Shown piece after piece: positions 27 to 1,316 of a stretch of 1,316 nucleotides of DNA. The stretch is taken from the NCBI RefSeq assembly GCF_003334335.1, contig NZ_QOWQ01000111.1; one strand, written 5' to 3'. The DNA is from Escherichia coli. GTDB taxonomy: Bacteria > Pseudomonadota > Gammaproteobacteria > Enterobacterales > Enterobacteriaceae. The stretch's first letter is position 1, and each line of letters opens with the position of its first letter. The notes under the pieces are model-generated. The model ran no database searches, was not told where the DNA came from, and worked only from the letters and a program-made list of their open reading frames with translations. A program made the position numbers and the translations under genes.

Positions 27-305
27 TTACCTCCAGATGCGTTGCTGGAATGTGCGGGACGGACGCGGTGGGCGTTCAGAGTAAGGAAGCCTGACGGAGA
101 TTATCCAGTGACGATAATCGAGGCTGAGGGTTTTCCTAAACTCATACCCACGTCTGCGGTAGTTCTGAATCAGCCATTCGGCCTGTTCTTCAGTGCATGG
201 GGCGTGCTGGAACCAGTCAGATTTGAATGCATGAGAACGCCGCCCGTGCCTGCTGGCAAAGACGGCTGAATTATCAGAATTGTATAATTTGGTATCGTGC
301 GCCAT
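27..305 (-). CDS. Hypothetical protein, 92 aa from the first ATG (MAHDTKLYNSDNSAVFASRHGRRSHAFKSDW...RIWR); function unknown
   Basis: Longest ORF in the region. The ORF track starts it at TTG 386, but that codon lies inside the hok terminator, so ATG 305..303 is preferred. SD is weak (GAGA) and no family was recognised. Confidence 0.4.
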   Translation of the reverse strand: MAHDTKLYNSDNSAVFASRHGRRSHAFKSDWFQHAPCTEEQAEWLIQNYRRRGYEFRKTLSLDYRHWIISVRLPYSERPPRPSRTFQQRIWR

Positions 306-377
306 CGGTTGTCTCTGCTGGCGCAGCAGGTGCCAGTTGTTCAGGCTGGCGTGCGAATTGTAAACCAGAATGCCAGG

Positions 378-404
378 AAAAAACAAAACCCGCCGAAGCG
401 GGTT
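378..404 (-). terminator. Rho-independent terminator of the hok transcript
   Basis: Minus-strand reading AACCCGC-UUCG-GCGGGUU (404..387), a GC-rich stem with a UUCG tetraloop, followed by UUGUUUUUU (386..378). No T-run follows on the plus strand, so it is unidirectional for the minus strand. Confidence 0.7.
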
Positions 405-407
405 AAG

Positions 408-416
408 TGCGGGTGC
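408..416 (-). promoter_or_regulatory. 3'-UTR block (fbi-like) complementary to the 5' end of the predicted hok mRNA
   Basis: 9-nt perfect complementarity with 792..800, located immediately 5' of the terminator hairpin in the transcript. Consistent with the fold-back-inhibition pairing described for hok mRNAs. Confidence 0.4.
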
Positions 417-472
417 GTTGAGGATGCCTGACTCATCAGAGGTGGCGAGGGATTTCTCCCCCGCCAGGTCTC

Positions 473-628
473 TTACTCCTCAGGTTCGTAAGCTGTGAAG
501 ACAGTGACCTCCGTCTGGCCGGTTCGGATTCGTACCTCGCAGAGGTCTTTCCTCGTTACCAGTGCCGTCACAATGACGGTAATACAGATGACGATCAGGG
601 CGACTAACATCGCCTTTTGCTGCTTCAT
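473..628 (-). CDS. hok: Hok/Gef-family type I toxin, 51 aa (MKQQKAMLVALIVICITVIVTALVTRKDLCEVRIRTGQTEVTVFTAYEPEE)
   Basis: Manual reverse-complement translation from ATG at 628..626 to TAA at 475..473. SD AAGGAG (643..638) lies 9 nt upstream of the ATG. The protein has the Hok-family hallmarks: ~50 aa, N-terminal hydrophobic helix, conserved LCE motif and C-terminal AYE motif. From memory it is closest to the chromosomal E. coli HokD(RelF)/HokC(Gef) subfamily, differing at a few positions. Confidence 0.9.
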   Translation of the reverse strand: MKQQKAMLVALIVICITVIVTALVTRKDLCEVRIRTGQTEVTVFTAYEPEE

Positions 629-685
629 AGCCTGCTTCTCCTTGCCTTTCGGCGTGTAAGAGGCTAACCTACATGTGACTAGCAT
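473..685 (-). CDS. mok: mok-like regulatory reading frame (70 aa), an in-frame N-terminal extension sharing the hok stop codon
   Basis: ORF-track 70-aa frame starting at ATG 685..683, with SD-like GAGG about 8 nt upstream (697..694 on the plus coordinates). The 19-aa extension MLVTCRLASYTPKGKEKQA is translated across the hok SD. This matches, as I recall, the mok/hok arrangement of chromosomal loci such as mokC/hokC, which share a stop codon. Confidence 0.65.
   Translation of the reverse strand: MLVTCRLASYTPKGKEKQAMKQQKAMLVALIVICITVIVTALVTRKDLCEVRIRTGQTEVTVFTAYEPEE
642..670 (+). promoter_or_regulatory. Putative sok promoter (-35 TTGCCT 642..647, 17-bp spacer, -10 TAACCT 665..670)
   Basis: Hexamers read directly from the sequence with canonical 17-bp spacing. 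The promoter sits inside the mok coding region on the opposite strand, as expected for sok. Confidence 0.45.
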
Positions 686-747
686 GAAATTGGCCTCAGA
701 TTAATGTTAAGCGTCCTGCAAGACGCATAATGTTAACTGGGGCTTTT
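677..747 (+). ncRNA. sok: Putative Sok-like antisense RNA (~70 nt) complementary to the mok translation-initiation region
   Basis: Plus-strand promoter-like TTGCCT-N17-TAACCT (642..670) predicts a start near 675..678. The transcript would be antisense to the mok SD/ATG (683..697). It ends in a long imperfect hairpin (693..743) followed by TTTT (744..747). Size and position match the known Sok RNA layout. Ends are approximate. Confidence 0.55.
693..747 (+). terminator. Putative sok RNA terminator hairpin plus U-tract
   Basis: Imperfect inverted repeat 693..715 / 722..743 with core stem gcgtc/gacgc (711..715 / 722..726) and loop ctgcaa, followed by tttt at 744..747. Confidence 0.45.
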
Positions 748-750
748 CTC

Positions 751-785
751 TGTCTGCCTTACGGTGGCATGCCCGAGGCAGACAG
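751..785 (-). promoter_or_regulatory. Structured hok mRNA leader element: 9-bp inverted repeat (751..759 ctgtctgcc / 777..785 ggcagacag) around a 17-nt loop containing the palindrome ggcatgcc
   Basis: Inverted repeat seen directly. It lies in the predicted 5' leader of the hok transcript, where hok mRNAs carry regulatory stems (tac/ucb region). Confidence 0.5.
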
Positions 786-791
786 CCTCAA

Positions 792-800
792 GCACCCGCA
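792..800 (-). promoter_or_regulatory. 5' leader block (tac-like) perfectly complementary to 408..416
   Basis: Plus 792..800 gcacccgca is the exact reverse complement of plus 408..416 tgcgggtgc. At least 792..797 would be transcribed if +1 is near 797. Confidence 0.4.
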
Positions 801-803
801 GCA

Positions 804-831
804 ATTCTACTTAACTCTCGCTTTACCGCAA
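804..831 (-). promoter_or_regulatory. Putative hok/mok mRNA promoter (-35 TTGCGG 831..826, 16-bp spacer, -10 TAGAAT 809..804; predicted +1 near 797)
   Basis: Minus-strand hexamers read from the sequence; TAGAAT is a 5/6 match to TATAAT. The predicted start gives a ~170-nt leader before the hok ATG, in line with known hok mRNAs. The predicted 5' end reads GGGUGCUUGAGGCUGUCUGCC. Confidence 0.4.
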
Positions 832-843
832 ACCGTTTTTACC

Positions 844-865
844 CGATATGGGAATTCCCATATCG
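844..865. repeat. 22-bp perfect palindrome CGATATGGGAATTCCCATATCG centred on an EcoRI site
   Basis: Read directly from the sequence; it is its own reverse complement. It lies between the stop of the 34-aa ORF (874) and the predicted hok -35 (831), about -47 to -68 from the predicted +1. No T-run follows on either strand, so it is not an obvious terminator. Confidence 0.9.
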
Positions 866-873
866 TAATGAAT

Positions 874-978
874 TCAGTTCCCTAGTCGATCCATCAAAAA
901 CACAACCAGGCAGTAAACACCCACAACAGCAATAACAGCCAGCGCACCTTCCATTGCCAGTGAGATATCATCCGACAC
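874..978 (-). CDS. Candidate small hydrophobic protein, 34 aa with a GTG start (MSDDISLAMEGALAVIAVVGVYCLVVFLMDRLGN)
   Basis: Strong SD AAGGAGG (988..982) followed 4 nt later by GTG 978..976; stop TGA 876..874. One predicted transmembrane segment. An alternative ATG at 980 in another frame gives a 28-aa peptide but has a 2-nt spacer. Found by manual translation. Confidence 0.3.
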   Translation of the reverse strand: MSDDISLAMEGALAVIAVVGVYCLVVFLMDRLGN

Positions 979-1013
979 ATTCCCTCCTTTGGTGTTAATC
1001 CCGGCGAACGCTT

Positions 1014-1097
1014 TTACCCACACCGACAAATAACATATACTAAAAAAGCGATAGCCATAGCAACGCCTGTAATTGCAAATGCTTCAGGCCAGATCAT
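1014..1097 (-). CDS. Candidate small hydrophobic protein, 27 aa (MIWPEAFAITGVAMAIAFLVYVICRCG)
   Basis: Textbook RBS: AGGAGG (1110..1105), 7-nt spacer, ATG 1097..1095. The start codon overlaps the stop of the upstream ORF as ATGA, suggesting translational coupling. One predicted transmembrane segment. Below the ORF-track length threshold; found by manual translation. Confidence 0.35.
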   Translation of the reverse strand: MIWPEAFAITGVAMAIAFLVYVICRCG

Positions 1098-1276
1098 TGG
1101 CGCACCTCCTGCGGCGGTTCTGGTAACGGCATCCAGTCGGTTACATTGCGGCTCTGTGTTTCGAAAAATTCATCACCATTACGGACTACATCAAAAAACT
1201 CACCGTCTCGATATTGCGCATAAAGAACGAATGCGCCATCACATAAAATAATTACGTGCTGACCATCATCCGGCAT
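1094..1276 (-). CDS. Hypothetical protein, C-terminal 60 aa from the first Met; the frame stays open to the right window edge, so the gene may be 5'-truncated
   Basis: ORF-track frame with stop TGA at 1096..1094. Translation upstream of ATG 1276 remains open through 1315 (…PVTPDGWISCSER-MPDDGQ…). Contains a duplicated acidic motif, DGEFFDVV / NGDEFFET. No family recognised. Confidence 0.4.
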   Translation of the reverse strand: MPDDGQHVIILCDGAFVLYAQYRDGEFFDVVRNGDEFFETQSRNVTDWMPLPEPPQEVRQ

Positions 1277-1316
1277 TCGCTCACTACAGCTTATCCAACC
1301 ATCCGGAGTTACCGGA

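Follow-up and report, generated by a model that had tools for sequence, protein, structure and literature searches.

A predicted hok/mok/sok toxin–antitoxin module in the nin-like region of an Escherichia coli lambdoid prophage, apparently the intact counterpart of K-12 hokD

The stretch of Escherichia coli DNA analysed here (hereafter the window) comprises 1,316 bases, and its genomic context was read from near-identical records. On its minus strand lies a hok toxin gene of 51 codons and a stop (473..628), identified from the open reading frame list, Pfam and PHROG scans and pairwise comparison. A mok reading frame of 70 codons (473..685, minus strand), taken from the open reading frame list, runs in frame with hok to a common stop, and a putative Sok antisense RNA is placed by homology on the opposite strand. 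The remaining features also lie on the minus strand. Downstream of hok are a 92-codon prophage ORF (27..305; PHROG 1212), identified by a PHROG scan and from a near-identical genome, and the start of a DUF968/YdfU gene (25-1), assigned from a near-identical genome. Upstream, the open reading frame list and annotation give a 34-aa hydrophobic ORF with a strong Shine–Dalgarno (SD) sequence (978-874; WP_001278450.1), followed by an unannotated 27-aa hydrophobic ORF from the same list (1097-1014), whose ATG overlaps the stop of a DUF551 gene (ATGA); the C-terminal part of that DUF551 gene, identified from the list and scans, occupies position 1094 and above, within 874..1316.

The translated product of 628-473, MKQQKAMLVALIVICITVIVTALVTRKDLCEVRIRTGQTEVTVFTAYEPEE, fits the form of the Hok family, with ~50 residues, a single N-terminal hydrophobic helix, a conserved cysteine after the helix and a charged C-terminal tail. 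Pfam HOK_GEF (PF01848) matched it over its full length (i-E 3.5e-22, model positions 1-42/42), and PHROG 251 ('MokW-like host killing') matched with E 5e-32. The hydrophobic segment spans approximately residues 5-25 with a Kyte–Doolittle maximum of 2.96 (19-residue window from residue 7), and Cys14 and Cys30 both align with HokC, HokD and HokW. When compared with reference Hok sequences taken as genes from annotated records, the toxin was nearest among K-12 proteins to HokD (48/51 identical, 94%) and then to HokC (42/51), as the initial annotation had proposed, followed at a distance by HokA and HokB (37% each) and HokE (35%). The changes relative to HokD (I9V, L16I and A42T) bear out its description of a few conservative transmembrane substitutions and one near the C-terminus. 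Identity was 49/51 with the copy in prophage Sp6 of E. coli Sakai, 44/51 (86%) with HokW of phage 933W, and ~43% with the R1-type Hok on an IncF plasmid. Both HokD and HokW, at 94% and 86% identity to the window protein, have been reported as toxic (10.1101/2025.08.07.668861; PMC8621323). NCBIfam models for the Hok subfamily (NF007279, score 46.8, curated cut-off 73) and the HokA equivalog (NF007290, score 37.6, curated cut-off 89) remained under their cut-offs and were therefore unusable for assigning a subfamily; despite these scores, PGAP names a protein identical to the window Hok as HokD.

The codon for Tyr47 lies within a TACG motif (CUUACGAAC, 488-491, minus strand). TACG is the reported context of A-to-I editing by TadA, which turns a Tyr codon of hokB into Cys and does so, according to a 2026 preprint, in hokC, hokD and hokE as well (10.1101/2025.08.07.668861). 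Editing at Tyr47, if it occurs, would supply another cysteine able to pair with Cys30. A second TACG in the window gene spans codons 32-33, where editing would be synonymous.

The predicted full-length hok (mok-hok) mRNA would be ~415 nt long, running on the minus strand from G797 to the U-tract past the terminator (383..797), with its 5' end set by position 1 of the Rfam model RF01794 and by alignment to the leaders of hokC and hokW. Its putative SD sequences are GAGG for mok (697-694) and AGGAG for hok (642-638), and the Mok reading frame is collinear, codon for codon, with mokC and with MokW of 933W (61/70 identical). RF01794, although named 'sok', models the hok leader including the Sok target and not the Sok strand; it matched 797-623 on the hok-sense strand with 117.6 bits (gathering score 59, E 8e-28), compared with 118.3 at K-12 hokC, and K-12 hokA, hokB and hokE also scored above threshold. 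A scan of the K-12 hokD locus with this model gave no match. The R1-type plasmid leader did not reach the gathering score, and comparison of the window leader with that of R1 consequently rests on the literature (PMC9841398) and on folding. At the 3' end, a terminator scan (404-387) identified an intrinsic terminator, AACCCGC-UUCG-GCGGGUU followed by a U-tract (378..404, minus strand).

Upstream of the leader, a hok promoter was assigned on the minus strand (804..831), with a -35 of TTGCGG (831-826), a 16-nt spacer and a -10 of TAGAAT (809-804). On the plus strand, a Sok promoter (642..670) was assigned with a -35 of TTGCCT (642-647), a 17-nt spacer and a -10 of TAACCT (665-670). A consensus sigma-70 scan of the window called neither, so both assignments rest on homology: the hok hexamers are the same in the window, 933W hokW and Sakai Sp6, and the Sok hexamers match exactly those 5' of the annotated sokW of 933W, an RNA reportedly transcribed from a promoter of its own (PMC8621323). 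By consensus the hok hexamers are weak, and the Sok -10 matches at 3/6 positions. The putative Sok RNA itself (677..747, plus strand; 71 nt, with ends placed by homology) can be aligned over its whole length with the annotated 71-nt sokW and with K-12 sokC. Its 5' end would be a single-stranded tail of 15 nt that is complementary to the mok start region and covers the mok AUG; a long terminator hairpin follows, ending in UUUU, and the predicted folding energy is -27.6 kcal/mol.

Three further features of Sok were observed. Within its 5' recognition tail (677-695, plus strand), 7/19 positions differ from SokW and the remainder of the RNA is nearly identical; such divergent tails may insulate co-resident hok copies from cross-repression. 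On both strands at 700-735, an 18-nt insertion found in the prophage-type leader and Sok, and lacking in the hokC leader and sokC, lengthens the Sok terminator hairpin. Lastly, a 1x1 internal mismatch in the Sok hairpin is preserved as such across the window, Sp6 and 933W, although bases on either side have changed.

The hok mRNA of plasmid R1 has been described as switching from a closed to an open form (PMC9841398), and the predicted folds of the window transcript reproduce this switch as a thermodynamic prediction. Predicted folds located three elements on the minus strand: tac, the translational activator (GGGUGCUUGAGG, 786..797); ucb, the anti-SD box (AAAAGCCCC, 739..747), which agrees with the Rfam consensus structure; and fbi, the fold-back inhibitory element (CCUCAACGCACCC, 411..423). 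The full-length mRNA (797-383) has a minimum free energy of -175.5 kcal/mol (z = -8.1 relative to shuffled sequences), with its 5' and 3' ends paired. In that fold, tac (797-786) pairs with fbi (423-411) through 12 base pairs and one bulge, ucb (747-739) pairs with the mok SD (697-694), and the hok SD (642-638) pairs with 662-658. In the 3'-truncated fold, tac instead pairs with ucb (745-739), the mok SD shifts from ucb to dcb (663-660) and the hok SD becomes single-stranded. The tac/fbi duplex, at -21.5 kcal/mol, was stronger than that obtained with shuffled 3' UTRs (-15.3 ± 2.2 kcal/mol), of which 4/500 equalled it, and K-12 hokB retains the tac/fbi helix via compensatory changes at two positions.

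The same 3' region (383-464, minus strand), comprising the hok 3' UTR hairpin, fbi and the terminator, gave a sub-threshold match to the Rfam family isrK (RF01394; 27.1 bits, gathering score 50, E 0.0016). The idea that IsrK is a relic of a hok 3' end was considered and dropped, as a related 3' UTR in a Salmonella phage, where hok is decayed, yielded no isrK match (E up to 0.1); the resemblance is probably generic.

The chromosome of E. coli SW070917 carries a sequence 99.9% identical to the whole window, with an identical Hok (WP_052977210.1), and its hok locus lies on the strand of an early-right operon. On one side are replication genes and DUF1627/DUF977/DUF4406/Ea22/DUF551 genes; on the other are orf92, DUF968 (YdfU), RusA and DUF1133, with lysis, terminase, capsid and tail genes farther along, and the integrase and excisionase at the prophage end adjoin potC. 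This prophage shows decay: its DUF551 and portal genes are frameshifted, and an IS4 has inserted. The Sakai copy, 95.9% identical, lies in an annotated 'prophage Sp6; lambda-like phage'. The position, between replication genes and DUF968-RusA-Q, thus reads as a nin-like region by gene order, and the surroundings of both copies uphold the initial annotation in viewing the locus as stand-alone and possibly prophage-borne.

A plasmid or phage-plasmid hok/sok module serving classical plasmid post-segregational killing, which would draw on the 426 of 10,891 places of the hok locus that are on plasmids and on 441 plasmid records at 90-95% protein identity, is very improbable here: the best whole-window matches were chromosomal in 20/20 cases with the same DUF551/DUF968 neighbours, a full prophage structure surrounds the SW070917 copy, and the classical R1-type Hok is as distant as noted above.

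Among the neighbouring sequences, the 34-aa product differs from its Sp6 counterpart at the start codon alone (GTG versus ATG), and the 27-aa product differs at 3 residues. The exact protein of the 92-codon ORF was found on 155 contigs. K-12 Qin has an intact, 79% identical counterpart (L002:4310-4585, minus strand), flanked by rem and ydfU and unannotated in NC_000913.3. A perfect 22-bp palindrome, CGATATGGGAATTCCCATATCG, occupies window positions 844-865, between the stop of the 34-aa ORF and the hok -35 and close to both; Sakai Sp6 has it unchanged, and the 933W hokW locus does not have it. As it has no U-tract, it is not an obvious terminator, and it could be a protein-binding site.

Comparison with K-12 (MG1655, Qin cryptic prophage) places the window locus in relation to the textbook hokD (relF). 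Homology starts at window position 642, 14 nt before the hok ATG and exactly at the Sok -35, and spans the coding sequence, 3' UTR, fbi and terminator. K-12 hokD is near-identical to the window in its hok SD, coding sequence, 3' UTR with fbi, and terminator; in contrast, it is without the hok promoter, tac, ucb, mok start, Sok promoter and Sok RNA, with relE and relB there instead. The breakpoint, with the lack of an Rfam sok match in K-12, bears out the view of the initial annotation that this copy, unlike K-12 hokD, has its own mok frame, antisense RNA and promoters. Both loci have the same downstream neighbours, a 92-codon ORF and then ydfU/DUF968, and this common orf92 and ydfU identifies them as positional orthologues, although K-12 has a ~400 bp insertion carrying rem between the hok terminator and orf92 (L002:4586-5040) that is found neither in the window (306-382) nor in Sp6. 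Several phages in our collection carry hok together with rem.

Upstream of hok, tblastn of K-12 RelE and RelB detected no similarity in the window at E up to 10, and NCBIfam and PHROG scans assigned the upstream ORFs to DUF551-type or unknown phage families with nothing RelE-like among them, in agreement with the earlier statement that the upstream gene does not resemble RelE. The probability that the window holds a K-12-type hokD, lying third in a relBEF operon and expressed through relBE read-through without mok/sok, is therefore negligible: the PGAP name HokD and 94% identity to K-12 HokD would favour it, but the window is without RelB/RelE similarity and carries the mok frame, leader and Sok region that are missing from K-12.

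Integration of relBE in K-12 has been described as cutting an ancestral ORF of ~70 codons to 51 codons (PMC6379469). Judged by the aligned sequences, K-12 hokD appears to be this locus with all sequence 5' of the hok SD replaced by relBE, and the window represents the intact state; the K-12 relBE-hokD fusion is a derived exception, as already published (PMC6379469). The SW070917 prophage has a RelB/RelE-family pair of its own (L001:27525-28006, plus strand) beside the repressor gene, 7 kb from hok and on the opposite strand, and blastp of its RelE-family toxin against K-12 RelE, the one comparison made, detected no similarity. An origin of relBEF by a simple deletion fusing such a prophage pair to hok was rejected on the strength of this blastp comparison.

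Another close relative is the hokW/mokW/sokW module of 933W and Sakai Sp5, which aligns as a whole and continuously across window positions ~405-838. In the 933W record, hokW, mokW and a 71-nt sokW have been annotated since 1999. As in the window, Mok has 70 codons, the toxin 51 aa and Sok 71 nt with the extended hairpin, and tac and fbi are the same. Of the changes that separate HokW from the window Hok, four lie in the C-terminal tail, and the terminator hairpin of the window, retained in K-12 hokD and Sakai Sp6, is missing from 933W hokW. The genomic position also differs: the 933W module lies near attR, past the tail genes, on the minus strand (L009:32360-32870), and a search for hokW in the nin region of 933W, including tblastn, did not find it there, whereas the window copy occupies the nin region. 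The boundaries of the shared module fall shortly before the hok -35 and shortly after fbi. Comparison of the two positions suggests that hok behaves as a cassette of ~435 bp moved between sites in lambdoid phages.

In the Salmonella phage ZC-S1_prp (L010:2440-2900), a decayed hok without a start codon, with two in-frame deletions and with its leader lost, is recognisable by its 3' UTR upstream of Gifsy-2-like genes and Q, a nin-region position as in the window; the existing annotation puts a hypothetical protein over part of this remnant, on the wrong strand.

Two other systems share this architecture. The hokC (gef)/mokC/sokC locus has the same arrangement as the window and its leader aligns throughout, but it is chromosomal, beside nhaA and outside any prophage, with IS186 20 nt downstream of hokC in K-12. 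The hok/mok/sok (parB) system of R1 and IncF plasmids has the same gene layout and the same tac/fbi/ucb/dcb folding logic; it is plasmid-borne with a proven role in post-segregational killing, whereas the window copy is that of a prophage.

At least 80% of the hok locus (383-830) was present in 3,952 of the 5,426 complete E. coli genomes, with up to 10 copies per genome, and at least 80% of the whole window in 597 of the same 5,426; K-12-type records cover the 3' 58% of the hok locus and no more. Public contigs carrying the exact proteins number at least 999 for the 51-aa Hok and 270 for the 70-aa Mok. A 2026 preprint catalogued 44,248 Hok homologues and reported prophage enrichment, and the window peptide is unique sequence 786 in its supplementary alignment (10.1101/2025.08.07.668861). 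The window locus is an ordinary, already known element and the common intact form of the hok locus. The initial annotation had implied something unusual in a stand-alone copy, an impression not supported by the 3,952 of 5,426 genomes, among which this is the common state. The case that it named as refuting, identity to an already characterised Hok in the same genomic context, applies by half: an identical protein in the same context is public (WP_052977210.1, annotated HokD), and the experimentally characterised HokD and HokW differ from it by 3 and 7 residues.

The toxin, mok frame and leader matches are beyond coincidence. Taken together, we assign a probability of about 0.9 to the reading that window positions 378-831 constitute a complete hok/mok/sok type I toxin–antitoxin module of the HokD/HokC/HokW subgroup, located in the nin-like region of a lambdoid prophage and operating by the mechanism described for R1. 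By homology, we infer where the transcripts of this copy begin and end, that its promoters are active, that its Sok is unstable and that its Hok is toxic. By this mechanism, a weak promoter would yield a stable hok mRNA of ~415 nt that is locked closed by pairing of the 5' tac with the 3' fbi; in this state the mok SD would be masked by ucb and the hok SD by dcb. As the 3' end is slowly trimmed, fbi would be lost, allowing tac to pair with ucb and mok to be translated and, via coupling, hok. The unstable 71-nt Sok, made from its own promoter on the opposite strand, would base-pair with the opened mRNA around the mok start, leading to cleavage by RNase III. Once Sok synthesis stops, Hok would be made, and this 51-aa single-pass inner-membrane peptide would collapse the membrane potential.

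Structural integrity could also mask a functionally silent relic, passively carried and never releasing Hok. According to earlier work summarised in the 2026 preprint, chromosomal hokA, hokB and hokC gave no post-segregational killing or rifampicin activation (10.1101/2025.08.07.668861), so a full set of elements is no guarantee of activity; both the hok and Sok promoters are weak by consensus, and the best-matching SW070917 prophage is itself decayed, as described above. Nevertheless, all coding and RNA elements of the window locus are intact, and its promoter hexamers are the same as those of the functional hokW-sokW. Relative to Sakai Sp6 the module has changed more slowly than its neighbours, with divergence of 1.1% in the 3' UTR, 2.6% in the hok coding sequence and 4.1% in the leader, compared with 10.8% in orf92. 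Truly decayed copies look different, as in the ZC-S1 remnant with its deletions and missing start codon. We therefore consider a silent relic unlikely and favour the working type I module.

The role of the module in this prophage is less certain than its mechanism; the most likely, by analogy with its relatives, would be selfish stabilisation of the prophage and/or assistance to lysis on induction. The latter is modelled on Sp5 hokW-sokW, shown by Takada et al. (2021) to be a working type I toxin–antitoxin system (PMC8621323) in which Sok vanishes and HokW is made after mitomycin C in a RecA-dependent manner (PMC8621323), and which doubles phage release (PMC8621323). Stabilisation would act through the killing of cells that lose the prophage. 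Phage exclusion, as reported for R1 hok/sok against T4 (cited in PMC8621323), is a possible role.

A more speculative reading is that Hok acts not as an addiction module but as a programmed, induction-coupled membrane-damaging factor released via sense read-through, which we regard as improbable. In both known prophage positions, hok would be co-oriented with an N-antiterminated early operon, namely pR-nin-Q here and, in 933W, what would be the pL transcript once circularisation lets it cross att. Sense read-through driven by prophage induction could then occlude the convergent Sok promoter, and the resulting 5'-extended hok RNAs would be unable to form the tac-fbi lock. If true, this would explain the RecA-dependent loss of SokW, and the hok terminator would double as a nin-region terminator, putting Q under N control.

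For the complete type I module that we favour, the window locus cleanly illustrates that K-12 hokD (relF), the textbook form, is derived by truncation, and that automatic annotation also applies the name 'HokD' to intact loci regulated by mok/sok. Studies of the function of prophage-encoded Hok, whether in stabilisation, lysis timing or phage exclusion, should thus prefer intact copies over K-12 hokD.
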